From: an uncultured Bdellovibrionales bacterium
Lineage (GTDB): Bacteria > Patescibacteriota > Minisyncoccia > Moranbacterales > JAKLHP01
Assembly: GCA_964440305.1 (NCBI GenBank)
Contig: CAYTRS010000002.1
Span: 4,048-68,047 of the forward strand
Length of the DNA: 64,000 nt
Direction: 5' to 3'
The notes under the pieces are model-generated. The model did not search any database, was not told where the DNA came from, and saw nothing but the letters and a program-made list of their open reading frames with translations. A program made the translations under genes and the position numbers. Positions 22,352-42,700 of the stretch are shown piece by piece; positions within the stretch are counted from its first letter, which is position 1, and each line of letters opens with the position of its first letter.

Positions 22352-23746
22352 TTATTGATTCACAACTTCCCAAAATCCACCCTTATCCGGTCCGATTCTT
22401 TTTATAATTCCCTTGTCTTTTAAGACTTTGACATTATACTCCACTGTTTTTTTCGAAAGCTTGCCCTCTTTCATCATTTCTTCCTTGGAGATGTTTCTAT
22501 TTTTTTCAATCAGACTAACAATGATTTTCTGATTTTCCCTCAATTTTCCTACTCCCTTTTCTACCCCCCGTTCTACTCCCTTTTCTACCCCCTCTTTATA
22601 TTTCTCCATCCTTTGCTCAATGCTCATTTTCTGCAAGTCCGGTCTTTCAAAAGTGATGCTGAAGCGGACATCGCTGACATCCAGTTTTGGATGAGGTAGA
22701 AAATATTCATCCATCATCTCGCTCATTCTCATCAGTCCTGATCCGATCTTTTCCACCAATTCCATTCTTTGCATCAGTCCGAATAGCAGAGTATTTCTGG
22801 GAAAACTTTTTTTGTATAAATCTTCGACTTTGATGTTGCCAATCAAACTCCCCGGATTATCAATTTCTATCCTGTCAGAAAAAATACTGATCTGGATATT
22901 CCCGATGGAAAAATAATCCCTGTGAGCTATCGCATTCAGAAGCGCTTCCCTCAAGGCTTCCGCGGGCAACTCCAAGACTTCTTTTCTTGGACCGCCGCCC
23001 CTGATAATATATTCCGTATTTAATTTTGACTGCAAATAGTTGAAAGCTTCCTGGTAGTTCGCATACAAATCCGCGTCAAATTCTTTACTGTCGATTACCT
23101 TTGTTTTAGATTTGCCACGAAACAAGGCGCAAGTGATCGTGGCGCTGCTGATAAACCGCGAAGCTTTGTTGCAGAACATCAACACTCCTGCATTTTTCAG
23201 CTTATTATCTCCCAATAATTCTAAGTTTCGCAAAACTTCATCCCGGCTCAGTTTGGTCTCTATGCCTATTTTTTTCAAAAAGTTCCCATAAGCATCGTCA
23301 TTGAAATCCTTTTCCAGGTCGAACTTTTTATTCAATTTTTCATCGAAACGAATCAATCCTTCATCCATAAAAAGATCCCTGATTTCGTCTCTTGAGAGCT
23401 GCTGACTGTTGGCGCCTTGGCGCATATAAAATTTTCCTCCGGTTGAATAGGGTTTCTTTTTGCCTTCCGGCACATCAATAATCACCACACCTTCAAATTC
23501 GCTTATATCAACCGAAAAGATCGGATCGAATTTTCTGATCAAATCCTGAATTTCCGATTTCATCCTGTTGTTCAAAGTGACTGGTTTTATTTTACCGTCA
23601 TCAGTAACGCCGATCAAAACCTTGCCCCCATTGGCATTAGCCATGGCGCAGATTTCGCGAGCCAGATTGGAATTATAGCTTTCCTTAAATTCGAGGTTGA
23701 ATCCCTCGCCTTCCTGGATCAAAAAATCAAGTTCTTTATTGTTCAT
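22352..23746 (-). CDS. Schlafen/AlbA_2-domain protein with HATPase_c_4-like middle and C-terminal wHTH (RecG-C-like putative regulator family)
   Basis: N-terminal LIQEGEGFNLEFKESYNSN...ICAMANANGGKVLIGVTDDGKI matches AlbA_2/Schlafen. C-terminal wHTH (IIVSLIEKNRNISKEEMMKEGKLSKKTVEYNVKVLKDKGIIKR). GVEKGVERGVEKGV repeat. Confidence 0.6.
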   Translation of the reverse strand: MNNKELDFLIQEGEGFNLEFKESYNSNLAREICAMANANGGKVLIGVTDDGKIKPVTLNNRMKSEIQDLIRKFDPIFSVDISEFEGVVIIDVPEGKKKPYSTGGKFYMRQGANSQQLSRDEIRDLFMDEGLIRFDEKLNKKFDLEKDFNDDAYGNFLKKIGIETKLSRDEVLRNLELLGDNKLKNAGVLMFCNKASRFISSATITCALFRGKSKTKVIDSKEFDADLYANYQEAFNYLQSKLNTEYIIRGGGPRKEVLELPAEALREALLNAIAHRDYFSIGNIQISIFSDRIEIDNPGSLIGNIKVEDLYKKSFPRNTLLFGLMQRMELVEKIGSGLMRMSEMMDEYFLPHPKLDVSDVRFSITFERPDLQKMSIEQRMEKYKEGVEKGVERGVEKGVGKLRENQKIIVSLIEKNRNISKEEMMKEGKLSKKTVEYNVKVLKDKGIIKRIGPDKGGFWEVVNQ

Positions 23747-28480: not shown

Positions 28481-30214
28481 TTACTTGCCTTTTTTAACAG
28501 CTTGTTCATTTAGTCTTTCAATGTATTTGATAACATTTTTTATTTTATCCCATCGCAAAACCTCATCAGTTATTTCGTTTGTATGCATTACCGGATTTCT
28601 TACCGGATTTATTTCTTTAGCATCATTATTCAAGCCTTTTTGATTTTTTTTCTTTTTATTCTGAACTTTATGTATTTTCATGTCTATGATCCCGGCTAAG
28701 CCACAAAGATCTAAATAATTCAAATAACTTTCATTCTTAATGATTTTTCCTTTCAGGGCGTGCCTCTCTTCGTCTTCTTCTCTGAATTTCTTTATCATAT
28801 TAAGACTATCCAAAACATCTTTTTCCTCTTCCACTGACACATCTAAATCGCCTTCCTCAATACCTTTTATTTTTATGTATTCTCTAAAAATATTTTCAAG
28901 GATGAAAAGATCCTGATAAACAAGGGTGTTTTTGTAAGAGAGCAACTTGAGTCTATTTTTTAATTTCTTCTTTGCGTCACTGTCACTAATGGTTGCATTC
29001 AACTTATCTTGAAAATCTTTCTCGCGTCGATTTCGACTCTCTTCCATCCTCACCTCGTACCCAGGTCTGGAATCTTGGTCTATATCAACATCTTGTCGTA
29101 ACTCGCGCCTCCACGGAGTCCAATCTTGTACTATCGTGAATAAGATCTTATTTAGTTCTTTCAAAAATTCTTGATACAAAGGATCACTTTTGATAATCCC
29201 TTCGCGAGAACTTGTAAATCTATCAATTTTCTCATCCTCAAATCCATCGACGTGAATTTCTCCATATAAATATTCTTCGGTAACCGTTTGTCTCGTCACC
29301 TCTTCAAAAATATCTTCCTGCCTCAAGCGACCATTAGTAAACAAGTTAACACTTGCCTTAAAATCGCCCTTGGAACCCCTGAGGAGTATTTGCTTAGCGT
29401 GTTCAACAGAAGCAACAAATCCTTTTATTTGAATCTCTTTTCCATCAAATTTAAAAGAAGTATCTTTGATAGTTTTCTCTCTTTTTAAATTTTTATACCT
29501 GTCTGCAAATCGTTTGTCTTTTGTCCCAATATACCAAATAAACTGAGTATTGGTGTTTAGCTCCTCCAGATCCTTTAGTGTTACTGGTTTATCATTTACC
29601 TTTATAACAAATGAGTCGCCTTTTTTTAGGCTAAAAATAAAATTAAATTGAGTGGCGAGATATTTTCTTATTACATCCTCACTATTGAGTCTTATGTTAA
29701 TCGTGTTGAAAATGATTTTCGTTCCACTCTTTTTGTTTGAAGGAAATAATTTATTTTTCTGATGGTCAGTCAAATTCTCAAGTAAATAGTTACCGCGTTT
29801 TTTAATTTCATCATCAAGTTCAGTGTTGTTTATAATCCCCCCCGTGGTTTCTAATCCACTCTTTTTCGATACTATCGTTACCTTATCGGAAATGGACAAC
29901 ATGGCTAATTTACCTATACCTTTTCTGCCAATTACTTTGCGTTTTGATTTATTGTCTTTGTCATCCCGTCTTGAATATCCAACATTTAAAAACTTGCCCT
30001 GAAAGTCATGGGAATCCATTCCCTTGCCATTGTCTTCAACCACGAGTTGATTTTTACTGATTGTTACTTCGACAACCTTTGCTTCCGCATCCCAGGCGTT
30101 CGAAATAGCCTCTGCGATAACGGTTGCGAAACTCCTATAGAGACCTCTTCCCAAATGGTTTAGAACCTCAAGAGAGAACTCGAACTTAAAAGATTCATCT
30201 TGTACTTCTTTCAT
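28481..30214 (-). CDS. GHKL (HATPase_c_3/MORC-like) ATPase with C-terminal HEPN-like RNxxxH motif; putative effector partner of the adjacent m5C methyltransferase
   Basis: Bergerat-fold motifs: N-box EAISNAWDA, G1 VEDNGKGM, G2 GRKGIGKLA. C-terminal …NPVRNPVMHTNEITDEVLRWDKIKNVIKYIERL contains R-N-x3-H within 30 aa of the end (HEPN-like). Overlaps the Dcm gene by 20 nt. Confidence 0.6.
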   Translation of the reverse strand: MKEVQDESFKFEFSLEVLNHLGRGLYRSFATVIAEAISNAWDAEAKVVEVTISKNQLVVEDNGKGMDSHDFQGKFLNVGYSRRDDKDNKSKRKVIGRKGIGKLAMLSISDKVTIVSKKSGLETTGGIINNTELDDEIKKRGNYLLENLTDHQKNKLFPSNKKSGTKIIFNTINIRLNSEDVIRKYLATQFNFIFSLKKGDSFVIKVNDKPVTLKDLEELNTNTQFIWYIGTKDKRFADRYKNLKREKTIKDTSFKFDGKEIQIKGFVASVEHAKQILLRGSKGDFKASVNLFTNGRLRQEDIFEEVTRQTVTEEYLYGEIHVDGFEDEKIDRFTSSREGIIKSDPLYQEFLKELNKILFTIVQDWTPWRRELRQDVDIDQDSRPGYEVRMEESRNRREKDFQDKLNATISDSDAKKKLKNRLKLLSYKNTLVYQDLFILENIFREYIKIKGIEEGDLDVSVEEEKDVLDSLNMIKKFREEDEERHALKGKIIKNESYLNYLDLCGLAGIIDMKIHKVQNKKKKNQKGLNNDAKEINPVRNPVMHTNEITDEVLRWDKIKNVIKYIERLNEQAVKKGK

Positions 30215-31247
30215 ATTCTTTTATATGCTCTTTAATCGCCTTACCTATTATGACCCCCAGTTGTGGAGGCACTGCATTTCCTATGTGACGACACAGCTGA
30301 GTCATCGGTAAATTCCCGAAATCATACGAAACGGGAAATGTTTGCAACATTGCTCCTTCCCTCAAAGAAATCGCCCTATCCTGCTCCGGATGTCCGAAGC
30401 GACCCGATCCGTAACTGGCAAATTGCGTCGTGATTGTGGGAGAGACTTCATTCCATCGCATGCGACCGTAGACCGATGTATATGTTTGACCGCTGTCTTT
30501 CTTGTAACATTCAGGTAACAATTTTTTATCCCAATCCTTCCAAGAGCCGCCCGGCTTGGATTGGTTGATTCTCTTCATATTAGTTTCGGAAAGACTTTTG
30601 GCTTGATGCATCGGATCTTTTTTGTCCTTTTGCCCGGCTTTCAGTTTCGGTAATTTTTTTATTATATCACCCACCGTAACATAATTTTCTTTCGAATGTG
30701 TTTCTTTGGGGACTTTGATTTCCCCAAGCCGCGAGGCAAGCAATATGAGACGGCTTCTGTTTTGCGGCACTCCGTAATCAGGTGCATACACAACCTTGTA
30801 ATCAACCTTATATCGCATTTCTTCTAATCTCTTCACGAAATTTTCAAAGACATCCTCTTTTGTCACGCCGCGCACATTTTCCATCGATACCAAATCCGGC
30901 TTTACGACTTCAATCGCTCGCACGAAGTGATCCAACATATTCCACCTTTCATCCTTACCTTTCTTTCGCTGCTTGAATGCATGCGATGAAAACGGCTGAC
31001 ATGGCGCGCATCCTACCAAAACTTTGTAACTGTCCTTGGAAAACATTTTTTTCAACTCCTTGAAATCGTACTTTGAAACATCGGCTAATATGAATTCCGC
31101 TTTGTTGTTTTTTTTATAGGCGACGGCACAAGACTCGTCATTGTCAAGACCGGCCAAAACATCAATTCCCGCCTTTTTCAGACCATAGGTAAGTCCGCCT
31201 ATGCCGCTGAACAAATCTATTGCTTCTATTTTTGTTTTATTTCTCAT
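30195..31247 (-). CDS. DNA (cytosine-5)-methyltransferase
   Basis: Motif I DLFSGIGG, motif IV GCAPCQPFS, motif VI ENV, C-terminal GNAVPPQL (motif X). Confidence 0.85.
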   Translation of the reverse strand: MRNKTKIEAIDLFSGIGGLTYGLKKAGIDVLAGLDNDESCAVAYKKNNKAEFILADVSKYDFKELKKMFSKDSYKVLVGCAPCQPFSSHAFKQRKKGKDERWNMLDHFVRAIEVVKPDLVSMENVRGVTKEDVFENFVKRLEEMRYKVDYKVVYAPDYGVPQNRSRLILLASRLGEIKVPKETHSKENYVTVGDIIKKLPKLKAGQKDKKDPMHQAKSLSETNMKRINQSKPGGSWKDWDKKLLPECYKKDSGQTYTSVYGRMRWNEVSPTITTQFASYGSGRFGHPEQDRAISLREGAMLQTFPVSYDFGNLPMTQLCRHIGNAVPPQLGVIIGKAIKEHIKEYERSTR

Positions 31248-31330: not shown

Positions 31331-31456
31331 AGAGTAAAGAAAAACGGCCCGTATTTCGTCAAATTTCGCCCACAGGGGCGACTTTCGCGTCGAAAGGGTA
31401 TGGAAGTGCCAATATGCCAGAAACCGGAGTAAACCACTCCGGTTTGGCTGATTTCA
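31331..31456 (-). repeat. Conserved intergenic element copy 1 (upstream of the Dcm/GHKL operon), with extra hairpin ccggagtaaaccactccgg
   Basis: agtaaagaaaaacggcccgtatttcgtcaaatttcgcccacaggggcgactttcgcgtcgaaagggt is homologous to sequences at 35876-35935 and 42625-42700; internal hairpin cgccc-acag-gggcg. Confidence 0.55.
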
Positions 31457-31558
31457 TATAAGCGTCGCGAATCTGTCCCAACATTCGCATTTATTAACCG
31501 TCATGCGCTCATTGCGCTCACTTGCAATAAGCATAATCTTTGTTATGCCTACACAAAG

Positions 31559-32671
31559 TCATGCCTTTTTTATGGCAGACTCAATTAAATCATCGAAAGA
31601 TAGTTCGCCTTTTTTATAGGCGTCAAATGCAGCATCAAGTTCTTTATTTGTAAGAAATCCGTCATATCTAAGTTTTGGAACTGAATCAAAATTATTCTTC
31701 TTGGCTACAACTTTCATAACTTGTCTATTAAATTCATGAATCAAATATGATCTCATTGTATTTAAAAACTTTTTGTATCTCATGACTCTATATACATCAT
31801 AATATTGAGTCATTTTTAAATTATTTCCTTCTGTAAGGTAATGGAAGATAGTTCTTATCTTACTTTTTGCAAGATCATATTTTCTATTTTCGTCTGCATA
31901 GGCTACATATCTTGTTTTTTCAACAGAAAGCGCATGATCATCAGGATCCGCTCCGCTTTTAGCCTTATCCAAACCGAAATCCCAGAATTTTTTTATTTGC
32001 TTTAAATATTTCAAACTCGCTTTTGCTGGAGAATCGCTTGAAATAGGATATTTGCAATAAAAAACTTCTTCTGGCAAAAAGCTAACTTTTCTTGGGATTT
32101 CCTTGTCGCCGTATCCTTTAAAGTAATTCTTATTGGTAAAATAATAAGTTATAATACTATACTTCTGTAAATATTCAGCAATATGTCCATTTCTTTTTTT
32201 GATTTTCATTGTAGAATCACGCAAATAATCAAAATCTACTGGAAGGACATACTTATTGCTCTTAACATCAATCTCATCCCAGCATGTTCTATAAAAAGAA
32301 ATACCAGTGACCATGAGTTGATAAGCAATCATATTTAAAAACCCTCCAAGATCATCACCATTCCCATATAAATTGTCTCGGTATCGGGAATATTTATCAG
32401 TAAAATATTTTTCTAAATCTTCTTTTATTGTTAGGTTGTCACATTCAAATGAAAAATAATCTCTTTCATGCGTTATATATCCTGGTCTATCTGAAACTGG
32501 CACATCGCGAAGTGGAAATAATGAATTTCTTATAAACATTGTTTCGTTAAATAAGCCCATGGAATCACGAGAAGCAGCTTCTAGCCTAGAGTAGCCCTTG
32601 ATATAGCTCAAGAATGGATCGTCGATTGAGCTTCCATCTTTATCAAATATAGTTTTATTTCTTCGTTTCAT
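31559..32671 (-). CDS. Hypothetical protein (370 aa), third gene of an uncharacterized three-gene operon
   Basis: ORF track; 17-nt overlap with the upstream gene; no recognisable motif. Confidence 0.5.
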   Translation of the reverse strand: MKRRNKTIFDKDGSSIDDPFLSYIKGYSRLEAASRDSMGLFNETMFIRNSLFPLRDVPVSDRPGYITHERDYFSFECDNLTIKEDLEKYFTDKYSRYRDNLYGNGDDLGGFLNMIAYQLMVTGISFYRTCWDEIDVKSNKYVLPVDFDYLRDSTMKIKKRNGHIAEYLQKYSIITYYFTNKNYFKGYGDKEIPRKVSFLPEEVFYCKYPISSDSPAKASLKYLKQIKKFWDFGLDKAKSGADPDDHALSVEKTRYVAYADENRKYDLAKSKIRTIFHYLTEGNNLKMTQYYDVYRVMRYKKFLNTMRSYLIHEFNRQVMKVVAKKNNFDSVPKLRYDGFLTNKELDAAFDAYKKGELSFDDLIESAIKKA

Positions 32672-35126
32672 TGATTTTTGATAATACGGTTACAAAGCTT
32701 AAAACCTCCTCTCTTCTTTTTATAAATTCTACAAATTTTTCAACGCTATCATCTTCAATATTTCCAAGTCCATAACTAACTTCTCTGATAAATTTACTAG
32801 GATGATTGGCTACTTCCTGCATTCCAGAATAAAACCTAACATGGTCATATGTTTTTGGCATCTCAAGTATTTTATGATGAATCTGCGTATACCAATTGTG
32901 ATATTTCGTGGTTTCCCACTGGATAAGCTTAGTGGTTAAGTCAATGCCTCCAATGTTTCTTGCGTCTCCAAGGATTTCTATGGATTTTATGAAATAGCCT
33001 GGTCTGTAAGATTTTTCAAAAATTTTCACATACTCAATGAGCATTTTTTTATTTTGCTCCAATTCTGAGTGCAGAAACAAAAATCCTCCCAAGATAACTA
33101 CTAATCGATTTCTTAATATAAACATATCCGTGTTTGTTTCATTCACATTAAGCACGGATATTATTAGCGATAATATCTTGGATAGCTCTACAAATAATGC
33201 CTTTCTTTTTTTAAGAATAGATTGAAAAATAATCTTTTCTATTTCTTCAAGCAACTCGAGTTTAATGAGTATTTCTTTTGGGATGGTAAGTATGTAGGCA
33301 GCACACTTCGAAATGTCCTGAGAAAATTCATTTGCAAGAGTGAATTTATTTAGGTAAAACATTCTACTAATCCACTCGAATCTGATCTTTATAAAATGCG
33401 CACAATTTTCGTAATCTTTCTTCTTGATTAAATCAATTATGACATCTTCTTGATGATGAAGCATTTCACTAAAAAACTTCTTAAAAAGTTCTTTTTCTCT
33501 GCTTTTGACGCTACCCAACATTTCTTCCTCAAGATTTTTTACAGGAGTCATGATTTTGCCTTCGCACCCTTGTTCCAATTCCAAACGTTTCCAATAATCT
33601 ATAAATTGTTCATAGAAAATTGATGGCAGATCAATATTTTCTACAAAACCCTGACCATTTGAAAGCTTTCCATCATTACCAACTAAGGATCTGATGATCT
33701 CCTTGTATTTCTTGTATTTGAACCCGTCTATCAATACCAGTCCTGTTGTAAAATATGCATTCAAATAATCGTTTAGGTCTTCTTGCTTGGTTATATTTTT
33801 ATACAAATCCAAAAATGATCTAAAGAATTTATCATAAGTTTCAATTTCTTGATTTTCATAGATTCCATAAATCTTTTTCTGTCCACTATTAGTTTTTGAA
33901 TAATCACCACTTAATATGGTTTGATAAGATTTGATAACATGACTTAACAAATCTGGATTACTATTTATTGCATGGGATTGAATCTTTTGAAAAAGGGTAA
34001 AAGCATTATCTTCAAACCATGATAAATCTGGTTTTGGTAAAAATAACGGTCCAGTTCCTTGTAGCTCATAGTTGAGTTTTATAATGCTTTCAGATGAGCT
34101 ACCAGATTTTGCCAAATCGTGCTTTTGGTAAAACCACCATCCATTCTCCCTATCTATATACTTTTTATTTCCCGCGTACTCCGTAATGACAAAAGCAAGC
34201 ACAGTTGGAGCATAGATCGCATCACTATTGTTTTTAATTTTCAACAAATCATCAAATAAATTTTCGAGTAATCGCAACAATTTTCTAGTATTATTTCGAG
34301 CGTGCTGTACAAGGCTCCAACTTTTATACTTATAGGAAGATTTATCAGAAGCCGTTTTTATATTATCTCGAATATCACTCCAAAGTCTTTCAAATAGATG
34401 CTTGGGCTTAATTGTAACTATATAATGACTTTTGAAAATTATAATTCCCAATAAAGAAATAACGACCATCAAGCAAGCTATGGCAAAGCTAAATATTGGT
34501 TCAGGATAATCAAAAAATTCTGTTCGCAATAAAACAGAGATAGCCAGTAAATCAGTGAACACTAAAAGTTTAAAATAAAAGCTACCGACAGTTTCCTCAT
34601 TAACATAATCAGATACTTCCGATGAATATTTATCTGTACTTAATTGGAAGCCAACGGCGTATAAGGCAAATAATAAACCGAGAACCGCCGATATTGCACC
34701 AATAGATATCTCCAAAAACAACTCGATAAAATCTCGCCCAGGCACTCTGATGAAAGACAGGCTATTTGAAAATCCTTGTAATTGATCAAGTCCGATTAGC
34801 CATGCGGATGTTTTTGAAATAAGCAAGTCAATCGCAAATGAAACAACTATAAAAATAATAATCAGTGATATGATTTCACCCGACAACCTCACTATTTCAT
34901 TAACAATTTTATACTCCTTAATGCGCAATTGAAGTTTGAAGCTACTGACCCTAAAGCCCTCCTTCCTTTTTTGAAATTGATAATAAATAAATCCAAACAA
35001 TCTTGAAAAAAATTGATAAAATATATTACCATTTTCATCGCCAGGGTATGAATACTTTTTCTTTCTCTTTATCAGTCTGCTGATAAAGAGGAGCAAGAGG
35101 TATTTTATTGTTTTTAGATATCGCAT
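32655..35126 (-). CDS. Hypothetical 823-aa protein: N-terminal about 4 TM helices plus large helical cytoplasmic domain
   Basis: Hydrophobic segments about aa 75-230 (IISLIIIFIVVSFAIDLL, IGAISAVLGLLFALYAV, LLAISVLL, IACLMVVISLLGIIIF); rest K/E/L/I/F-rich helical; no NTPase or nuclease motif seen. Confidence 0.5.
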   Translation of the reverse strand: MRYLKTIKYLLLLFISRLIKRKKKYSYPGDENGNIFYQFFSRLFGFIYYQFQKRKEGFRVSSFKLQLRIKEYKIVNEIVRLSGEIISLIIIFIVVSFAIDLLISKTSAWLIGLDQLQGFSNSLSFIRVPGRDFIELFLEISIGAISAVLGLLFALYAVGFQLSTDKYSSEVSDYVNEETVGSFYFKLLVFTDLLAISVLLRTEFFDYPEPIFSFAIACLMVVISLLGIIIFKSHYIVTIKPKHLFERLWSDIRDNIKTASDKSSYKYKSWSLVQHARNNTRKLLRLLENLFDDLLKIKNNSDAIYAPTVLAFVITEYAGNKKYIDRENGWWFYQKHDLAKSGSSSESIIKLNYELQGTGPLFLPKPDLSWFEDNAFTLFQKIQSHAINSNPDLLSHVIKSYQTILSGDYSKTNSGQKKIYGIYENQEIETYDKFFRSFLDLYKNITKQEDLNDYLNAYFTTGLVLIDGFKYKKYKEIIRSLVGNDGKLSNGQGFVENIDLPSIFYEQFIDYWKRLELEQGCEGKIMTPVKNLEEEMLGSVKSREKELFKKFFSEMLHHQEDVIIDLIKKKDYENCAHFIKIRFEWISRMFYLNKFTLANEFSQDISKCAAYILTIPKEILIKLELLEEIEKIIFQSILKKRKALFVELSKILSLIISVLNVNETNTDMFILRNRLVVILGGFLFLHSELEQNKKMLIEYVKIFEKSYRPGYFIKSIEILGDARNIGGIDLTTKLIQWETTKYHNWYTQIHHKILEMPKTYDHVRFYSGMQEVANHPSKFIREVSYGLGNIEDDSVEKFVEFIKRREEVLSFVTVLSKINETKK

Positions 35127-35130
35127 GACC

Positions 35131-35838
35131 TTATTTCAATCTAGCATATTCTTCTTTTAATCTGATTAACATCTCCGGATAATACCGAAAAAAGCTTTGT
35201 ATCTTTTTGATATCGCCGTTGGAAATTTTCCCTTTTTTCATACTGTCAAACTCCAATGTATTTATATCGAACCGCGCATCAATATTTCTTTGCTTTGAAA
35301 TTACATGGAAATGTGCAGGCGGGTGGTCTTTCGGATGCAACTCCATTCTTAAATCACCGGCAGCAGCTATAAATCTTTTTATTTTATAGACCGTGCCATC
35401 CGGCAACACCTGCGTCGAATCAAGGTGTACTTCCAATAAGTCCGCGACACTCCTCTTTAATCTTGGCGCGATTAACTCATCCCTCGTGTTATCCTTGGTA
35501 TTGGTTTTGTCGTCGAGAGTGAGAGCTAGCTCTTTCGGATCAAGATATTTCTTGCAATCTGACCATATAGTGTTTTTATTTCCCTTTTTAAAATTTTCAA
35601 ATTCGGATTCGACTTCAAATAATCCCACAACGACACCAAGCGCGTATTCACCGTCTTTTAATCGAAATACTTCTCCGTAAAAAACAGTGCCGACATGTTT
35701 GTCCCAATCATGCTCTATGAGATAAGGAATATATTTGCTATTGATCTGGTCGGCCATACCCTCAAGCGCATTTTTGGACATACGTTCTCCATGCCTGTCC
35801 ACATGGGTAGTGCTCATTATTCCAGTAATAATCCTCAT
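35131..35838 (-). CDS. Fusion protein: unknown N-terminal domain (~150 aa) plus C-terminal DUF4160 (HxPxHFH) domain
   Basis: C-terminal LRMELHPKDHPPAHFHVISKQRNIDARFDINTLEFDSMKKGKISNGDIKKIQSFFRYYPEMLIRLKEEY matches the DUF4160 pattern (…RDHNPPHFHA…G…I…L…W). 5-nt gap to the next gene. Confidence 0.5.
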   Translation of the reverse strand: MRIITGIMSTTHVDRHGERMSKNALEGMADQINSKYIPYLIEHDWDKHVGTVFYGEVFRLKDGEYALGVVVGLFEVESEFENFKKGNKNTIWSDCKKYLDPKELALTLDDKTNTKDNTRDELIAPRLKRSVADLLEVHLDSTQVLPDGTVYKIKRFIAAAGDLRMELHPKDHPPAHFHVISKQRNIDARFDINTLEFDSMKKGKISNGDIKKIQSFFRYYPEMLIRLKEEYARLK

Positions 35839-35875: not shown

Positions 35876-35935
35876 TCTATTTCGCCAAATTTCGCCCACA
35901 GGGGCGATTACCACCCGAAAGCGTCCGAACATGCT
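35876..35935 (-). repeat. Conserved intergenic element copy 2 (upstream of the three-gene operon)
   Basis: ctatttcgccaaatttcgcccacaggggcgattaccacccgaaagcg: 33/34-nt identity with copy 1 core. Confidence 0.55.
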
Positions 35936-35977: not shown

Positions 35978-36715
35978 CTATCTTATCGAATTCCAATTAT
36001 CCAAAAAGTAGTCCATCTCATGATCCATATTCCCGAGGTATACGTGATTGTCTCTGAATTTTATATTCACGCGATAGCGTTTGCCTTGTCCCACTTCCAA
36101 TATTGCTTTTTCATGTACCTTCTTTTCTATCTCAAGAAAAGGCAAGATTAAAAAATGATTCTGTTTTTCTCCATGTAAAACAAAAATGTAAAATACACTG
36201 CCACTATTGTGACGTTCGAATGATACTTTTCTGATATCGAAAACATAGGCATCAAAACGGTTTAGGTTGGAGGTTTTCACTTGTATTCCAAAAAGTTGAG
36301 TTCCTTTTACTGCCACGATATCCATTCCGACATCTACGCTCATAATACTGGCGTTGAAACCGCGAAAAAGCAGTTCGCTGCAAACCAAGTGCTCGCCGCC
36401 TTTCCCTGTGAATCCACTTTCTACAACCAGTCTCTCTTCCGCCTCTTTTTCGGCTTCTATAATTTTCGGCGTTTGCTTTACCTCTTTTTTATCATGATTA
36501 AGCGTAAAAGTTCCGGGTGCGGTTTTCATGAAATCCGAGCCCTTGCCCTTGTTTTTAATATCTACCGTAATTTGGGCGTTCATTGAAGCTTCAGGCGTTG
36601 CTCCTTCGGTCTCTAAAATTCCCGATTCCAAAGCCAACCGCGTGATTTCGGTGTAATGCAAAGACTTTCCTGCTTTTTTCAGCACTTTGATTGCTGATTG
36701 TTTGAATGTGTTCAT
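35978..36715 (-). CDS. Mrr_N/HARE-type winged-helix plus Hjc-like PD-(D/E)xK nuclease fusion (putative restriction-type endonuclease), last gene of the Type I R-M operon
   Basis: N-terminal SAIKVLKKAGKSLHYTEITRLALESGILETEGATPEASMNAQI (Mrr N-terminal-like wHTH). C-terminal GEHLVCSELLFRGFNASIMSVDVGMDIVAVKGTQLFGIQVKTSN resembles archaeal Hjc (…ER.L…L…GF.A.R…PDI.A.K……IE.K.S) with E…D…(I/V)QVK. 3-nt gap to hsdR. Confidence 0.5.
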   Translation of the reverse strand: MNTFKQSAIKVLKKAGKSLHYTEITRLALESGILETEGATPEASMNAQITVDIKNKGKGSDFMKTAPGTFTLNHDKKEVKQTPKIIEAEKEAEERLVVESGFTGKGGEHLVCSELLFRGFNASIMSVDVGMDIVAVKGTQLFGIQVKTSNLNRFDAYVFDIRKVSFERHNSGSVFYIFVLHGEKQNHFLILPFLEIEKKVHEKAILEVGQGKRYRVNIKFRDNHVYLGNMDHEMDYFLDNWNSIR

Positions 36716-36718
36716 ATT

Positions 36719-39700
36719 TTATTCTGTAAATTTACCACCCGATATATCAAAGAATCTTTCAAAGAAATTCGTGAGTTTCGTTAAAACACTCTCACGCTTT
36801 TTGGAACGCTCGCCGGTCGGAGAAAAGCGGGATACAGGAGGCAAGACCTTAGTAATAGCAGTACCGGTTGTCGCTACACTACCGTCACGGAAAGCATTTT
36901 TTACAAACGCATAAGTTGCATCGTGATCCAAACCTTCATTGTCAATAATTTTTTCAAGCTCCTCAATCTTTTTCTTATTCACGAATTTCTGCCAATCATC
37001 ATCAACCACCGAATGAATATCAAGTGAAGTGATAAACTGATTAATGAGATCTTTCTTATTGCGTAGTTCAATGCTTGAGTCTATTGCTTTATTAATATCA
37101 ACCAAAATCTCGCGATTTTTATTGTGGTCTTCGTGATATTTCTTGATGAGTCCCAACACAAAGTCAATATTTATTTCTACCTGCTTGATAAGCTCCATCT
37201 CAAACACTAAATCATCGTTAATATTTTCCTGATCAATGTCTGCATTTTTACGAAATTCATTGTACAGATCAATGTACATACTATGATAATCTTGAATATC
37301 GCGCTCAGTTAAAATCTCATTGCCGGCAAACTCATCAAAAGTTGTCAAAATGTTACGAACTCGTAATATCCCGCCATAGAGCTTGATAAAATCTTTCTGT
37401 TTTTGTTCGCCAATGATTTGCTCACCGACTGGGAATTTTTCCAGGAGCTCTGCCACTAAACCTGTATATCCGCGCACTTCCTTGTTACCGTCTTTGTAGC
37501 CGTTATAATACTCCTCGTATGATTTAAGAAGTACAATACCGCCCGCTTCTTTATCGCCAAATAGAGCTATGGATTCGTTTGTCGCTTTCTCTAGGTTACG
37601 GAAGCAAACAATGTTTCCAAAGGTCTTTACGCTATTTAAAATACGATTGGTACGCGAAAATGCCTGCAAGAGTCCATGCAGTCTCAAGTTTTTATCCACC
37701 CAAAGCGTGTTCAGCGTTGTGGCGTCAAAGCCGGTCAAAAACATATTGACCACAATCAGGACATCAATCTCGCGGTTTTTCACTCTCAAACTCACGTCTT
37801 TGTAATAATTTTGAAACTTATCCGATGAAGTATCAAAAGACGTTCCAAACATCGCATTGTAATCAATAATTGCATTATCAAGAAAATCTCTTGAACTCAC
37901 ATCGAGTCCGCTCGTATCTTCTGAGTTTTCGTCTATCATTCCATCGGCGTCTTCATCATTCACGCCGAAGCTATAAATTGTTGCTATCTTGAGTTGTTTG
38001 TCACTCGGTACATTTGTGAGTTGTTTTTTAAATTCGGCATAATACTTTTTTGCGACATCAATGGACGAAACCGCAAATATAGAATTAAAGCCTGCTAATC
38101 TTCTGTCCTTCAGTTTATAAAAACTGTTACGCTTGGTCTTTTGGTCAAAATGTTCGCGAATGTAGCTGACGATATTTGCTAAGCGCTCTGGCGAAGCAAG
38201 TACCGCCTCTCGATCGATATCACTGACTTTCTTATCTTCAATATTTTCAGCTTCACGAACAGTAGAAACATAATCCACTTTAAACGGCAAAACATTTTTA
38301 TCAGCGATGGCATTTACAATGGTGTAGGTATGCAGTTTTTCACCAAAGGCTTGCTCGGTGGTTTTCAAGTCCGGTCGTCCGCTAGAAGACGCGTTCATGG
38401 CAAAAATTGGTGTACCGGTAAAACCAAAGAGGTTGTAATTCTTGAATGTTTTGGTAATAGCGGCGTGCATATCGCCAAACTGTGAACGGTGACATTCGTC
38501 AAAGATAAGCACTACATGCCCATCAAAAATAGTATGCCCGGAATTGCGCCCAATAAAACGATCGAGTTTCTGGATAGTGGTGATGATAATTCGTGCGTTC
38601 GGATTTTCCAATTGTTTCTTCAAAATCGCCGTACTGGTATTACTATTGGCCGCACCTTTCTCAAACTTATCGTATTCTCGCATGGTCTGATAGTCCAAGT
38701 CCTTGCGGTCAACCACAAACATCACCTTATCCACATACGTCAATCTACTCACGAGCTGGGCAGTCTTGAAACTGGTCAAAGTTTTTCCCGATCCGGTCGT
38801 GTGCCAAATGTACCCTCCAGCCTCAACCGTGCCAAGTTTCTTGTAGTTCGTGCTGACTTCAATGCGACTCAATATTCTCTCTGTCGCCACTATCTGATAT
38901 GGTCGCATCGCCAAAAGCTGTCGTTCAGTGGTAAAAACACAATAGCGGGTCAAAATATTTAAAAGCGCGTGTTTGGCAAAAAATGTCTTGACAAAATCCA
39001 TCAGATCCGTAATTGGTCGATTGGTAGCATCTGCCCACCAACTGGTAAATTCAAAACTGCTGCTAGAGCGCTTACCTTTTTTCACCGCACCCTCACTGGC
39101 TTCTTTGATATGCTCCGAACGGACGGTGTTGCTATAATATTTTGTATGCGTGCCATTGGAAATTATAAATAGTTGAACATATTCAAAAAGCCCCGCCGAA
39201 GCCCAAAAACTTTCGCGTTGATAACGGTTAATCTGATTGAATGCCTCGGCAATAGCGACTCCACGGCGCTTGAGCTCGACATGCACCATCGGCAAACCAT
39301 TAACAAGAATCGTTACATCATAGCGATTAGCGCGTTGCCCATCTTCAGTCGCATATTGATTGATGACCTGCAAGCTATTGTCGTGAATGTTGTCTTTTTT
39401 TATAAGATACACATTTTTGACTGTTCCGTCCTCGCGCGTCAGGTTTCTAATATGATCTTCTTGGATCGTTGCTGTTTTTTCTGCAATGCTTTGGTTTGGA
39501 TTGGCAATTTCACTTGCAAAGAAATTCTCCCATTCAGCATCAGCAAAAGTAAACCCATTGAGTTTCTCCAATTGCAAACGGAGGTTCGATACCAAATCAG
39601 ATTCAGATGTGATAGCTAGATATTCGTACGCTTGCGTTTCGAGTTGTTTTATAAAAGCACGCTCCAGATCCGCCTCGCTTTGATAAGAAACACCATCCCG

Positions 39701-39793
39701 TACCCGATCTGCGAGCTTATAATACTCAGCGACAACGGTGCTTTGAGGATTTTCTGCAACTAGATTGTATTTTTTATTATTTGGCATATTCAT
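36719..39793 (-). CDS. hsdR: Type I restriction enzyme R subunit (HsdR)
   Basis: 1024 aa; SF2 helicase motifs TTGSGKTLTSF (Walker A), DECHRSQ (DEAH); HsdR_N-like N-terminus; operon with hsdM/hsdS. Confidence 0.9.
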   Translation of the reverse strand: MNMPNNKKYNLVAENPQSTVVAEYYKLADRVRDGVSYQSEADLERAFIKQLETQAYEYLAITSESDLVSNLRLQLEKLNGFTFADAEWENFFASEIANPNQSIAEKTATIQEDHIRNLTREDGTVKNVYLIKKDNIHDNSLQVINQYATEDGQRANRYDVTILVNGLPMVHVELKRRGVAIAEAFNQINRYQRESFWASAGLFEYVQLFIISNGTHTKYYSNTVRSEHIKEASEGAVKKGKRSSSSFEFTSWWADATNRPITDLMDFVKTFFAKHALLNILTRYCVFTTERQLLAMRPYQIVATERILSRIEVSTNYKKLGTVEAGGYIWHTTGSGKTLTSFKTAQLVSRLTYVDKVMFVVDRKDLDYQTMREYDKFEKGAANSNTSTAILKKQLENPNARIIITTIQKLDRFIGRNSGHTIFDGHVVLIFDECHRSQFGDMHAAITKTFKNYNLFGFTGTPIFAMNASSSGRPDLKTTEQAFGEKLHTYTIVNAIADKNVLPFKVDYVSTVREAENIEDKKVSDIDREAVLASPERLANIVSYIREHFDQKTKRNSFYKLKDRRLAGFNSIFAVSSIDVAKKYYAEFKKQLTNVPSDKQLKIATIYSFGVNDEDADGMIDENSEDTSGLDVSSRDFLDNAIIDYNAMFGTSFDTSSDKFQNYYKDVSLRVKNREIDVLIVVNMFLTGFDATTLNTLWVDKNLRLHGLLQAFSRTNRILNSVKTFGNIVCFRNLEKATNESIALFGDKEAGGIVLLKSYEEYYNGYKDGNKEVRGYTGLVAELLEKFPVGEQIIGEQKQKDFIKLYGGILRVRNILTTFDEFAGNEILTERDIQDYHSMYIDLYNEFRKNADIDQENINDDLVFEMELIKQVEINIDFVLGLIKKYHEDHNKNREILVDINKAIDSSIELRNKKDLINQFITSLDIHSVVDDDWQKFVNKKKIEELEKIIDNEGLDHDATYAFVKNAFRDGSVATTGTAITKVLPPVSRFSPTGERSKKRESVLTKLTNFFERFFDISGGKFTE

Positions 39794-40952
39794 TGAATGT
39801 TAGAAGCTTTCCTTGATAGTATTCATATTGTTGTCTGCGAGCAGAAAGTTCTGCTGGCAAACCAATTGAGATGTCGTTCACCAGCGCTTCAAGTTTATCA
39901 AGTATAGCCACAACGCTGTTCTGATGTGATAGATCAGGAATTTGCACAGTCGCTTTCTTTAAAATATCGTATGAAATAAAGGGCTGTGAACCTGCATGTG
40001 CTTGTGATCTAAAATCTTGTAAAAGTAAAAGATAATAACCATACCTTGGATTAATATTTGTCTTAATTTTACAGATTACTCCGTTATATGTAACAAAGTG
40101 TTTTCCCTTAACCCAATTAACAATACCCGCATATGCGCCAATATGGCCTATTACAGGCGCATCCTCACTATTATATTGATCATGTTGACCAGCTAAACGA
40201 TTACCACCATATACTGGATATTTTCCTCCTGTGTTCGGGATAGTATTGCCTTCGCCATATTGAAAATCGTAAATATCACCTAATGCTTTCCAATCCCCCT
40301 TATTGCTAGACAGCATTAAATCTTTTCTATAATACTCATACTGTTTCTTTCTTGCTTCTAGCTCTGCTTCTAGCTCTGCTTCTAGCTCTGTGAAATTATT
40401 AAGTACCTTAATAATTTCCTCTTGCACCGCAATCGGCGGGAGAGGTATTATAATTTTTGCAAAACGCTTTTTTGAAACATTAAATCGCGTTACACCACTT
40501 GCAGTTTTTGCAATTTGTTTTCTCATCTGTTCATCCCTAAATAAATATTTTGAAAATTCTGGTAAAAGCAGATTGGTATTATGAAAACGAAAACCAAAAC
40601 AGAAACTATTTAGATACAATGAACCATCGGCTTCTTTAGTTAAAACAGATGACATTCCGCACTCGTTCGGTGTTTCGGACGATCCTGTAAATAACACGTC
40701 CCCGTATTCAATTTTGTTCTGGTTTTCATCTTTACTCACCTTTACAAAAGTATTAATATCAGTATTGACTGCAATATTAGAAAAGATATTCATGTAGGTA
40801 ACAAATTTTGCGTTACCATTACTAAAATCATCCTTGCTCTTTCCAGACAGTCCGCCATAAAAATCGCCGAGTTTTCCCAACTCCTTAAACTCCACCCCAT
40901 TCGGGCAGAGTTCGGCGATCAGCTTTTCGATTTTGCTTACATGTTTAGTCAT
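39777..40952 (-). CDS. hsdS: Type I restriction-modification specificity subunit (HsdS), two target-recognition domains
   Basis: Start placed at the in-frame ATG at 40950-40952 (MTKHVSKIEKL…), 1 nt after the hsdM stop. Central conserved coiled-coil ELEAELEAELEARKKQYEYYRKDLM and C-terminal …RRQQYEYYQGKLLTF. Confidence 0.8.
   Translation of the reverse strand: MTKHVSKIEKLIAELCPNGVEFKELGKLGDFYGGLSGKSKDDFSNGNAKFVTYMNIFSNIAVNTDINTFVKVSKDENQNKIEYGDVLFTGSSETPNECGMSSVLTKEADGSLYLNSFCFGFRFHNTNLLLPEFSKYLFRDEQMRKQIAKTASGVTRFNVSKKRFAKIIIPLPPIAVQEEIIKVLNNFTELEAELEAELEARKKQYEYYRKDLMLSSNKGDWKALGDIYDFQYGEGNTIPNTGGKYPVYGGNRLAGQHDQYNSEDAPVIGHIGAYAGIVNWVKGKHFVTYNGVICKIKTNINPRYGYYLLLLQDFRSQAHAGSQPFISYDILKKATVQIPDLSHQNSVVAILDKLEALVNDISIGLPAELSARRQQYEYYQGKLLTFNEYAK
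40351..40390 (-). repeat. 12-bp tandem repeat (GAGCTAGAAGCA)x3 encoding (ELEA)x3 in the HsdS central spacer
   Basis: Plus-strand cttctagctctg repeated three times at 40361-40390. Confidence 0.7.
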
Positions 40953-40953
40953 A

Positions 40954-42564
40954 TTATTTTGTTCCTTCAATATCAGCCACAATTTTATCAATTGAAATAC
41001 GCAGTTCATTTTGCCTTGCGACAATCTGAGCAATTTTTGAGTTGAGAGAAGTGATGTCCACCACCTCACGCATGTCCTCCCTCACAACATAGCTTGATAC
41101 AGCGATATTGTAGTCGTTCTCAGTAATAGCTTTGTTTTCAACAAGTTTGGTAAAATAGTCTGTGTCTTTACGAGTCGTAAACGCTTCCAAAATCTTGAGG
41201 CGATTTGCCTCGCTCAATTTGTTTTTATTGCCACCACGAACAAATTCGGCAGATGCATCAATAAAAAGTGTTTTATTATCCTTCTTACTTTTTTTGAGAA
41301 CGATGATGCAGGTGGCGATAGTAGTGCCGAAAAAGAGATCAGGCGGCAGTTGAATGACCGCATCAACATAATTATTGTCTATCAGATACTTTCGAATTTT
41401 ACCCTCTGCACCACCACGATAAAGAACGCCAGGAAATTCAACAATCGCCGCCGTTCCGCTCGTTGATAGCCATGCAAGCATATGCATGGTAAAAGCGAGG
41501 TCGGCTTTGCTCTTTGGTGCTAATACTCCTGCTGGCGAGAAACGAGGATCGTTAATGAGAAGAGGATTCGCGTCACCCTCCCAATGAATTGAATACGGCG
41601 GATTGGAAACGATAGCATCAAACGGCTCGTCATCCCAATGCTTTGGATCTATGAGTGTATCACCGTGAGCAATATCAAAATTGTTGTAGTTGATGTCGTG
41701 CAGGAACATGTTAATACGACAAAGATTGTAGGTGGTGAGGTTAATTTCCTGTCCAAAAAAGCCTTGCCTAACATTTTCTCTGCCTAGGACCTTGGCAAAC
41801 TTGAGAAGCAAGGAGCCAGAACCACAAGCTGGATCATAGACCTTGTTCACTTCTTTTTTGCCAACCGTTGTGATTTCAGCCAGAAGTTCACTGACTTCCT
41901 GGGGAGTATAAAATTCACCACCAGACTTACCGGCGTTTGAAGCATACATGGTCATCAAAAACTCATACGCATCACCGAAAGCATCTATGGTATTGTCTGA
42001 ATAGTCACCAAGTCGTAGATCGCCAATAGATTCAAAAAGTTTTGTAAGTTTCTGATTTCTTTTTTCTACCGTACCACCAAGTTTATTGGAATTTACATCA
42101 AGATCTGCAAACAACCCTTTGATGTCATCTTCGCTGTCTGCACCCTTTGCGGAATTTTCAATATTTCTAAAAACGGCGGTAAGCGTTTCGTTAAGATTGG
42201 CATCATTACGAGCGTTCTTACGAACATTAATAAAAAGCTCACTCGGTAAAATATAAAACCCTTTTTCTACTACGGTATCGGATCGACCGAACTCTGCTTC
42301 TTTATTGGAAAGTGTGGCATAGTCAAAATCTTTTTTACCAGCACGATGTTCTTCAGTATTAATATGATTGGTCAAATTCTCACTTATGAAGCGATAAAAG
42401 AGTATTCCAAGCACATACTGCTTAAAGTCCCAACCGTCCACGCTTCCACGCAAATCATTGGCAATCTGCCAAATAGCACGATGTAATTCTGAGCGCTCTT
42501 GCTCCTTGGTCATGTTCAAATCTTTATCTTTTTTGCTCATAAAATTATTTTTTTCTAAACGCAA
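40954..42564 (-). CDS. hsdM: Type I R-M N6-adenine DNA methyltransferase subunit (HsdM)
   Basis: NPPY motif (VSNPPYSIHWEG), SAM motif DPACGSGSLL, HsdM N-terminal domain. Confidence 0.9.
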   Translation of the reverse strand: MRLEKNNFMSKKDKDLNMTKEQERSELHRAIWQIANDLRGSVDGWDFKQYVLGILFYRFISENLTNHINTEEHRAGKKDFDYATLSNKEAEFGRSDTVVEKGFYILPSELFINVRKNARNDANLNETLTAVFRNIENSAKGADSEDDIKGLFADLDVNSNKLGGTVEKRNQKLTKLFESIGDLRLGDYSDNTIDAFGDAYEFLMTMYASNAGKSGGEFYTPQEVSELLAEITTVGKKEVNKVYDPACGSGSLLLKFAKVLGRENVRQGFFGQEINLTTYNLCRINMFLHDINYNNFDIAHGDTLIDPKHWDDEPFDAIVSNPPYSIHWEGDANPLLINDPRFSPAGVLAPKSKADLAFTMHMLAWLSTSGTAAIVEFPGVLYRGGAEGKIRKYLIDNNYVDAVIQLPPDLFFGTTIATCIIVLKKSKKDNKTLFIDASAEFVRGGNKNKLSEANRLKILEAFTTRKDTDYFTKLVENKAITENDYNIAVSSYVVREDMREVVDITSLNSKIAQIVARQNELRISIDKIVADIEGTK

Positions 42565-42624: not shown

Positions 42625-42700
42625 TAAAGAAAAACAGCCCTTATTCGGCCAAATTCGGTCCAACGGGCGATTTTTATGCCGAAAGGGTGCAACTACCCCG
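42625..42700 (-). repeat. Conserved intergenic element copy 3 (upstream of hsdM)
   Basis: agtaaagaaaaacagcccttattcggccaaattcggtccaacgggcgatttttatgccgaaagggtg aligns with copy 1. Confidence 0.55.

Follow-up and report, generated by a model that had tools for sequence, protein, structure and literature searches.

A predicted phage portal-fold protein and a membrane-anchored solenoid form the core of a putative anti-phage cassette in Patescibacteria

We describe a cassette of three minus-strand genes, here genes 1, 2 and 3, in a 64,000-nucleotide stretch of DNA (the window) from an uncultured bacterium that GTDB places in the Patescibacteriota (contig CAYTRS010000002.1 of assembly GCA_964440305.1, positions 4,048 to 68,047 of the forward strand). 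The product of gene 3 has, in its predicted structure, the bacteriophage portal fold, which is the key result for the locus. The conserved core is gene 2, which encodes a membrane-anchored α-helical protein, together with gene 3, with or without a fourth gene (g4) that encodes zinc ribbons; gene 1, which carries a toxin domain, is an add-on. Below we set out the anatomy of the cassette, the fold assignments of its products, the linkage of its genes and its accessory, mobile character within defense islands. The cassette is probably a new kind of anti-phage system, and its portal part, judged from the model, looks borrowed from a virus.

Gene 1: 35131..35838, minus strand; open reading frame (ORF) of 235 aa, first cassette gene in the clade of the window
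Gene 2: 32655..35126, minus strand; ORF of 823 aa, core component 1
Gene 3: 31559..32671, minus strand; ORF of 370 aa, core component 2

The three ORFs and the 17-nt overlap between the end of gene 2 and the start of gene 3 are as given in the initial annotation of this DNA. The gap that it placed between genes 1 and 2 is 4 nt (TAA-GGTC-ATG) and not 5 nt.

Gene 3 is predicted to adopt the bacteriophage portal fold

The AlphaFold model of gene 3 was computed from a 27-sequence alignment without templates (pLDDT 78.7, pTM 0.79). When the model was compared with 48,164 chains, the first 57 matches all belonged to one fold class, and the model agrees with the portal fold (wing, stem helices, clip and crown). 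The initial annotation had found no recognizable motif in this protein, which holds for the family databases (no Pfam, NCBIfam or PADLOC family) and no longer for the predicted structure. At the sequence level, no portal family was found in Pfam, PHROGs or NCBIfam at E values up to 1, and no solved portal was found in the PDB with gene 3 profiles of 27 or 59 sequences. PADLOC returned only a chance-level CARF match (E 0.01, 13.6 bits).

The portal likeness could be a prediction artefact, in which case gene 3 would be an unrelated α/β protein and the genes hypothetical hitch-hikers with no coherent function. In favor of this, there is one model, built on a shallow alignment, 98 of its 370 residues have a pLDDT below 70, and sequence comparison lends the portal no support. 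But so long a run of leading matches in a single fold class, obtained without templates, is far beyond chance, and the strict synteny of genes 2 and 3 together with ORFs that stay intact down to ~30% identity argues for a conserved function. We consider an artefact very improbable.

A profile search of 1.84 billion representative proteins yielded 105 gene 3 clusters at E <= 0.001, and full-length members are almost all 330-390 aa long. Gene 3 thus belongs to a small and compact family, which stands apart from the large portal families instead of grading into them. No terminase, protease, capsid or tail genes stand beside the pair of genes 2 and 3 in the window or in the other cellular loci, so that a head-morphogenesis context is absent there. 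Since the fold agrees with a portal while sequence family and gene context do not, we regard gene 3 as portal-like or portal-derived, and not as a virion portal gene. If it assembles as portals do, gene 3 would form a dodecameric ring with a central DNA channel. The loop equivalent to the clip is short in the model, and gene 3 could thus have lost the ability to bind terminase or adaptor proteins.

The only viral copy lies outside the structural module

Pattern scans of 2.9 million viral contigs (IMG/VR) found no gene 3 relative and a single gene 2 relative, in locus L088; the gene 3 relative of that locus was detected by tblastn. The L088 pair lies between phage methylases and a serine recombinase, next to a reverse transcriptase. 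It is encoded on the strand opposite the terminase, with five ORFs (two of them methylases) in between, and is outside the structural module, at a site typical of prophage accessory genes.

These data bear on another reading, in which the pair belongs to a mobile element, either as a relic or as a functioning part. The element might be a defective prophage, a satellite resembling phage-inducible chromosomal islands or an element resembling a gene transfer agent (GTA), with gene 3 as its genuine packaging portal and gene 2 as a phage-encoded membrane protein, for instance one involved in superinfection exclusion or lysis. The presence of one copy on a viral contig beside a serine recombinase fits this reading, as do the changing contexts of the cassette and the repeats that flank it (see below). 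But the cellular loci lack the structural genes named above, the L088 pair is separated from the phage's structural genes, and viral contigs are nearly devoid of relatives. In addition, the uniform length of gene 3 and its intact state across classes of the candidate phyla radiation (CPR) at 30-57% identity point to selection on the pair itself. We judge a mobile-element origin of this kind improbable, and the narrower proposal that gene 3 is a real prophage portal was rejected on the missing IMG/VR pattern match and the position of the L088 pair.

We note that a large serine recombinase and a stand-alone reverse transcriptase follow the pair (L088:12045-13076, minus strand, and L088:10252-11865, plus strand). 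The reverse transcriptase may be a retron- or abortive-infection-type defense gene, and L088 looks like a prophage-borne defense hotspot.

Gene 2 combines a partial DUF2254 domain with an α-solenoid

Gene 2 has two parts:

Residues ~74-240: 34407..34907, minus strand; four-helix transmembrane (TM) domain, DUF2254-like by Pfam and hydropathy
Residues ~270-823: 32658..34319, minus strand; cytoplasmic domain, all-α HEAT/ARM-like solenoid with two small β-hairpin inserts

The four N-terminal TM helices and the helical C-terminal domain had been anticipated in the initial annotation. The protein does have a family match, to Pfam DUF2254 (PF10011) at 32.2 bits against a cutoff of 28.8 (E 6.4e-8). 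This match covers only model positions 22-175 of 368, the TM part, and in place of DUF2254 positions ~176-368 gene 2 has an unrelated α-solenoid of ~550 aa. The AlphaFold2 model (overall pLDDT 78.9, pTM 0.71) is of high confidence in this C-terminal part, where pLDDT is mostly 85-93. No enzymatic fold was detected in the cytoplasmic domain, which in the model looks like an α-solenoid scaffold; Foldseek against viral models gave nothing meaningful, and a profile-based sequence search of the PDB gave nothing. Polar residues that lie within the hydrophobic segments or adjoin them do not vary (D100, S146, T164, N176, T191 and D192), and neither do many charged and aromatic residues across the family. 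Gene 2 homologs fall into 38 clusters, almost all from CPR bacteria; a protein 100% identical to gene 2 is assigned by NCBI to Candidatus Moranbacteria, which makes the source of the window a CPR bacterium.

Genes 2 and 3 form the conserved unit

A scan with the gene 2 alignment over one genome per species (185,579 species) yielded 15 loci, all in Patescibacteria, and the family is thus rare and patchy. In all 12 genome loci with downstream DNA, gene 2 is directly followed by a gene 3 relative in the same orientation, and the two genes are adjacent in 20 of 20 loci that reach past gene 2. The same order recurs in L088, in L089-L093 and in the population of the window (at least 24 contigs). The two frames overlap or lie at most 1 nt apart, down to ~30% identity; this strict linkage with overlapping frames is consistent with co-translation and a complex. 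One pair outside Patescibacteria occurs in the metagenome-assembled genome of the anammox planctomycete Ca. Scalindua sediminis (JYX80_03585 / 03580; P0009 / P0069), which suggests inter-phylum horizontal transfer or a binning error.

Gene 1 behaves differently. None of the 15 genome loci with genes 2 and 3 has a gene 1 relative and, conversely, relatives of gene 2 and gene 3 are missing from all 61 loci that contain a gene 1 relative (a metagenome scan supplied 58 of these loci and look-ups three). Given these counts and its varied partners elsewhere, gene 1 is optional, an add-on to the core. The complete trio is confined to close relatives of the window (gene 2 at least 83% and gene 1 at least 66% identical), where it retains identical spacing behind four different upstream systems:

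L089: AAA_13 ATPase upstream of the trio
L090: type I R-M and GmrSD upstream of the trio
L091/92: DpnII R-M upstream of the trio
Window: type I R-M and HARE-HTH nuclease upstream of the trio

Because the same trio stands behind different systems, the block moves as a unit with gene 1 in this clade. The three-gene operon proposed in the initial annotation is therefore real within a narrow clade, while the wider unit is gene 2 plus gene 3.

These observations also weigh on a classical abortive-infection operon with three obligatory components, in which gene 1 would be a toxin-antitoxin-like trigger, gene 2 a membrane effector and gene 3 a partner. Such an operon would agree with the 4-nt spacer and the 17-nt overlap, with the constant spacing of the trio behind its four upstream systems and with the repeats that, in the window, bracket exactly these three genes. 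But the absence of co-occurrence in both directions is hard to reconcile with it, gene 1 relatives are coupled to many unrelated defense genes, and most loci with genes 2 and 3 lack gene 1, some having g4 instead. We find an obligatory trio quite unlikely.

Gene 1 carries a DhiT-type toxin domain behind a protease-like module

Gene 1 starts with an N-terminal domain and ends with a DUF4160 domain of the DhiT toxin type; the linker that joins them is variable:

Residues 1-95: 35554..35838, minus strand; N-terminal domain, weakly and partially resembling the His-containing N-terminal portion of HK97-type prohead proteases (Peptidase_S78)
Residues 170-222: 35173..35331, minus strand; DUF4160 core with the motif DHPPAHFHVISKQR (Pfam PF13711)

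The DUF4160 assignment of the initial annotation, including the extra N-terminal domain, is borne out by a Pfam score of 26.7 bits against a cutoff of 23 (E 6.5e-6) and by the presence of the domain in 32 of 32 aligned family members (best E 7e-9). Residues D171, H172, H176, H178, S181 and R184 of the core are invariant in the family alignment. DUF4160 is DhiT, the experimentally validated growth-inhibiting toxin of the DhiT/DhiA (DUF4160/DUF2442) pair (PMC8198452), and is a predicted effector in Menshen NsnC variants (PMC12065111). No cognate DUF2442 (DhiA) antitoxin appears in the precomputed Pfam annotation of the cassette neighborhood in the window and its close relatives.

The N-terminal domain matches Peptidase_S78 below threshold in 13 of 32 relatives (best E 0.012), and also matches PHROG head-protease and protease-capsid-fusion families. 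An hhalign comparison with 11 genuine S78 proteases from reference phages gave a probability of 70% over 40 columns only, and paired the invariant His43 of the domain with the His65 region of HK97 gp4. In the family alignment no conserved Ser nucleophile follows His43 within the domain. A true S78 protease was therefore rejected on the partial, sub-threshold match and the missing nucleophile; the domain is probably a prohead-protease-like, truncated and non-catalytic module. A PDB sequence search with the gene 1 profile found nothing. The two domains also occur apart, the N-terminal domain being joined to other C-termini in L073/L074.

Away from genes 2 and 3, a relative of gene 1 typically closes some other defense operon, often overlapping the upstream gene by 4 nt and in other cases following it after a 2-3-nt gap. 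In 15 loci the upstream partner is an Eco57I/MmeI-type methyltransferase, often preceded by a helix-turn-helix (HTH) gene, possibly a controller. Other partners are a type II restriction endonuclease with its methyltransferase, an LmuB-like ATPase, Avs4, RelA/SpoT-PDC-S33, DEAD helicases, DUF2779/Cas4-like proteins and a family that we call K4. The gene 1 family (~230 aa; loci L016-L076, for example L017:8001-8693, L035:2183-2872, L046:6805-7512 and L052:2122-2808) is thus a promiscuous "tail gene" of at least eight kinds of defense operon. In CPR genomes it may generally serve as an added toxin or backup effector, and it would be a portable prohead-protease-like sensor with a DhiT toxin, bolted onto many defense operons.

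Some gene 1 relatives carry an N-terminal MerR/HTH_17 fusion (P0166, P0172; 296 aa). In L049 a small gene stands immediately before the gene 1 relative; it belongs to cluster K3, in which HTH_3-type domains are found in the other members. The DUF4160 toxin may in this way be provided with an antitoxin or a controller.

K4 is a soluble family of ~826 aa with CxxC pairs, directly upstream of gene 1 relatives in six loci (for example L019:1024-3504, L020:3101-5581, L021:4539-6998 and L050:4503-7004); in L021 a type III-like Mod+Res pair precedes it. No Pfam or PADLOC family matches K4, which is a candidate for an unnamed defense gene. Distant homology to gene 2 was rejected, with an hhalign probability of 0.08% and no TM segments in K4.

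A fourth, zinc-ribbon gene is decayed in the window

In several relatives the end of gene 3 overlaps a further gene, g4, of which the window retains a remnant followed by a terminator-like hairpin and a 30-nt repeat:

g4 remnant (zinc-ribbon family C4): ~31455..31562, minus strand; ATGA start overlapping the gene 3 stop
Terminator-like hairpin AAACCGGAGTGGTTTACTCCGGTTT: 31421..31445, minus strand; end of the cassette, RNA fold of -15.2 kcal/mol

The stub consists of ~15 codons, a frameshift, ~22 more codons and a stop (~38 codons in total). Its frames read 'MTLCRHNKDYAYCK*' and 'SERNERMTVNKCECWDRFATLI*' (asterisks are stops), compared with 'MTAYKHLQDYIYYSELYDRMTINECECWD' in relatives, and tblastn with the g4 of L089 aligns to window positions 31475-31531 at 58% identity over 19 aa (E 0.007). 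The hairpin presumably works as a terminator.

Intact g4 (361-485 aa) is found in L004, L008, L009, L015, L089 and L091-93 (for example L089:13565-14650, L004:13541-14641 and L009:5639-7084). In these proteins four CxxC pairs are invariant, which would fit two Cys4 zinc ribbons, and the C-terminal domain is conserved, with the pattern 'TNWRLMSEG..YRLGYL.GRL'; no DUF4145/HEPN Pfam match and no PADLOC match was found for them. Saccharibacterial versions have an extra tail of ~120 aa.

The pair recurs beside defense genes in unrelated genomes

R-M or other defense genes are immediate or near-immediate neighbors in 13 of 17 independent contexts of genes 2 and 3 and represent at least eight system types. 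The adjacency recurs in unrelated genomes, as expected under guilt by association. The systems adjoining the pair are:

Type I R-M: window, L001, L002, L090
Type III R-M: L004
HKD-Snf2 helicase and type IIG: L005
Type ISP/IIG: L007
MmeI, helicase, T5orf172 and DUF2779: L015
DpnII R-M: L091
GmrSD: L090
AAA_13: L089
PDC-S11: L010
LexA-methylase (methyltransferase) fusion: L012

The suggestion in the initial annotation of a novel defense candidate is thus upheld in that the locus is uncharacterized and linked to R-M and defense genes in many unrelated genomes; its proposed anatomy was wrong, gene 1 being a separate module.

Such neighborhoods could have another cause. Genes 2 and 3 may form a membrane device for translocating DNA or other macromolecules (uptake, export or cell-cell transfer in episymbiotic CPR bacteria) with no part in immunity, their proximity to R-M genes reflecting shared residence in variable genomic islands. 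Portals are DNA-conducting rings, and an integral membrane partner would suit a trans-membrane conduit; furthermore, type IV secretion system (T4SS) pilin genes lie a few kb upstream in L089, and neither gene 2 nor gene 3 has a toxin or nuclease domain. But the T4SS neighborhood is seen in that one locus only, the pair has no conserved ATPase or motor gene alongside it, and the immediate co-directional neighbors are R-M and defense genes of many types. The rare, patchy distribution, the low GC content and the accessory copy in a prophage also fit an accessory or conflict role better. We consider translocation unlikely.

The cassette is a mobile unit with a bracketing repeat

The surroundings of the cassette in the window comprise the following features:

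Upstream neighbor: 35978..42564, minus strand; type I R-M operon (hsdM, hsdS, hsdR) and a HARE-HTH / PD-(D/E)XK-like gene
HARE-HTH gene: 35978-36715, minus strand; weak PD-(D/E)XK match
Downstream neighbor: 28481..31247, minus strand; Dcm C5-methyltransferase and a GHKL-ATPase protein with HEPN-like C-terminus
Direct repeat copy 1: 31352..31381, no strand assigned; 30 nt with hairpin, downstream of the cassette and upstream of dcm
Direct repeat copy 2: 35878..35907, no strand assigned; 30 nt, within the 139 nt that separate gene 1 from the HARE-HTH nuclease gene
Degenerate third repeat copy: 42641..42670, no strand assigned; upstream of hsdM, weak match, 67% identical

Both the flanking systems and the bracketing repeats agree with what had been read from the sequence beforehand. 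Repeat copies 1 and 2 are 97% identical and contain a TCGCCC-CTGT-GGGCGA hairpin; their 22-nt core occurs exactly twice in 64 kb, against a chance expectation of 0. We observe that the core, TCGCCCCTGTGGGCGAAATTTG, marks borders between defense operons in the window. In L090, similar cores at 107-128 and 11949-11970 flank the whole island of type I R-M, GmrSD and trio. A known RNA was rejected as an identity for the repeat, Rfam giving no match, and so was a widespread repetitive extragenic palindromic element, there being two good copies and one degenerate copy in the window. The repeat is best read as an intergenic or cassette-boundary hairpin. It might mark the cassette boundary, serve recombination, or act as a shared terminator or operator.

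The GC content of genes 2 and 3 is 0.32, compared with 0.41 for the whole window. Taken with the flanking repeat and the rare, patchy family, this supports the conclusion that the locus is a horizontally mobile defense-island cassette. Among island landmarks, the 64-kb window holds no tRNA, and no recombinase was noted near the cassette. The layout of the island recurs in at least 24 contigs from many samples and is therefore not an assembly artefact.

The neighboring systems show features of their own. The GHKL protein beside Dcm matches the PADLOC type II restriction endonuclease family REase_II at 3e-46. Its gene lies at 28481-30214 on the minus strand, its HEPN-like C-terminus has matches to PADLOC PDC-M34B and, weakly, to HEPN_Swt1, and the gene is split into ORFs of 305 and 272 aa in the population variants L094 and L095, which suggests ongoing inactivation or phase variation. 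In hsdS (39777-41069), three perfect tandem copies of a 12-nt unit at 40353-40390 (whole matched segment: TGCTTCTAGCTCTG) encode an ELEA repeat. HsdS length varies with the population variant (397 and 418 aa for called genes; 430 aa for the longest ORF in the window), consistent with specificity switching through changes in repeat number. A few kb beyond Dcm and the GHKL gene, past a MarR-efflux cluster, a 464-aa Schlafen-like protein (SLFN_AlbA_2 and HATPase_c_4) is encoded at 22352-23746 on the minus strand, and the variable or defense region may extend beyond the two R-M systems.

Discussion

We favor a defense module, or one for conflict with mobile genetic elements, that is built around a domesticated portal, and we see the case for it as evenly poised. 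A more specific form is possible, if rather doubtful in its details: a host-encoded ring of portal fold, tethered to the cytoplasmic membrane by a DUF2254-type α-solenoid protein, would act either as a decoy for terminase-DNA or procapsid assembly, or as a scaffold that activates partners, for instance g4 or the DUF4160 toxin.

In such a mechanism, the portal-like ring of gene 3 would be held at the inner membrane by the solenoid of gene 2 and mimic a phage portal. The ring would capture conserved phage proteins of head assembly and packaging (terminase-DNA, scaffold, capsid), or would poison assembly through dead-end assemblies. Engagement might then be passed to the TM domain of gene 2 and lead to membrane permeabilization or abortive infection. 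Alternatively, phage proteins would simply be sequestered, with the TM domain as a simple anchor. Since no DUF2442 antitoxin is found, we read gene 1 as a self-contained, fused sensor-toxin, whose N-terminal domain may serve as cis-inhibitor or sensor until a trigger arrives. Gene 1 would thus provide a second, independent kill switch, as it apparently does behind many other defense operons. Both accessories are optional, the zinc-ribbon g4 having decayed in the window and gene 1 being present in this clade only.

Several points weigh against a defense module built around a portal. The portal assignment comes from one AlphaFold model of a 27-sequence alignment, gene 3 has no sequence-level link to any portal family even with the 59-sequence profile, and the clip-equivalent loop, which joins helices 215-238 and 249-276, is very short and modeled with low confidence. 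Gene 2 lacks a recognizable effector or enzymatic domain; "membrane effector" is a guess for it, and its solenoid could be a passive scaffold. The protease-like call for the gene 1 N-terminal domain is weak (70% over 40 columns, with the Ser nucleophile missing). R-M genes abound in CPR genomes, and 13 of 17 is a raw count. Four of the 17 contexts (L006, L008, L009 and L011) have no recognized defense neighbor, and the gene upstream in the truncated locus L003 is a capsule-synthesis gene.

If a domesticated portal does serve defense here, bacterial immunity would gain a new principle, the mimicry or exaptation of a virion protein. Some of the "dark matter" among DUF2254 and DUF4160 proteins would acquire a function, and there would be a first explanation of defense beyond R-M in ultra-small CPR bacteria, which mostly lack CRISPR. 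The coupling of the gene 1 family to at least eight kinds of defense gene further suggests a general "backup effector" strategy.

Comparison with known systems

The locus had been described as matching no named system, and this stands: PADLOC-DB v2.0.0 has no anti-phage family for gene 1 or gene 2 and nothing for g4 or K4, and the checks with PADLOC, Pfam and NCBIfam gave only DUF4160 and the partial DUF2254. In the literature we found no defense system with a host-encoded portal-like protein and no described function of DUF2254, of which gene 2 matches the N-terminal half of the model only.

Gene 3 differs from the portals of phages and GTAs (HK97 gp3, SPP1 gp6 and the GTA portal) in having no sequence similarity to portals in Pfam, PHROGs or the PDB. 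Unlike a phage portal gene, it does not lie beside terminase, protease or capsid genes and always follows a DUF2254-like membrane protein. It is encoded in cellular CPR defense islands, and its clip equivalent is, in the model, reduced to a very short loop.

Portal, terminase and capsid are among the phage hallmark proteins that known defense systems detect; Avs4, for instance, senses the phage portal, and a gene 1 relative stands directly after the Avs4 gene in L052. RAZR consists of a Zn-ribbon and a DUF4145/HEPN RNase and assembles around phage portal rings (PMC13017515). The cassette would resemble RAZR in using a ring as activating scaffold, and its optional g4 has two Cys4 zinc ribbons. 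Whereas RAZR joins a Cys4 ribbon to DUF4145/HEPN with an Rx4-6H motif, g4 has no DUF4145/HEPN match and is a stub in the window. PADLOC detected no homology of genes 1-3 to RAZR or Avs. With RAZR and Avs4, the phage brings the portal and the host supplies the sensor; here, in contrast, the host would encode the portal-like protein. What RAZR, Avs4 and the cassette share is the theme of a portal ring central to phage-host conflict.

With DhiT/DhiA and Menshen NsnC, gene 1 shares a bona fide DUF4160 domain. Canonical DhiT is a stand-alone, single-domain protein followed by the DUF2442 antitoxin (PMC12065111), whereas gene 1 has 235 aa with an extra N-terminal domain and linker, heads this cassette and, in its relatives, ends other defense operons. 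There is also an analogy to CapRel(SJ46) in the proposed role of gene 1. In both, one polypeptide joins a toxin domain to a second domain that could auto-inhibit it and sense a phage structural protein; the gene 1 N-terminal domain weakly resembles a phage head protein, the prohead protease. The folds and families of gene 1 and CapRel(SJ46) are unrelated.

Kiwa (KwaA/KwaB) and Zorya are defense-island systems in which a multi-pass membrane protein has a soluble partner. The cassette may be likened to them in this pairing of membrane and soluble components, with no homology of genes 1-3 in PADLOC. Phage satellites, in turn, can block phage maturation through head-assembly mimics or re-directors. 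We know of no portal-fold protein in Kiwa, Zorya or satellite interference, and to our knowledge no immune machinery has a host-encoded protein of this fold.

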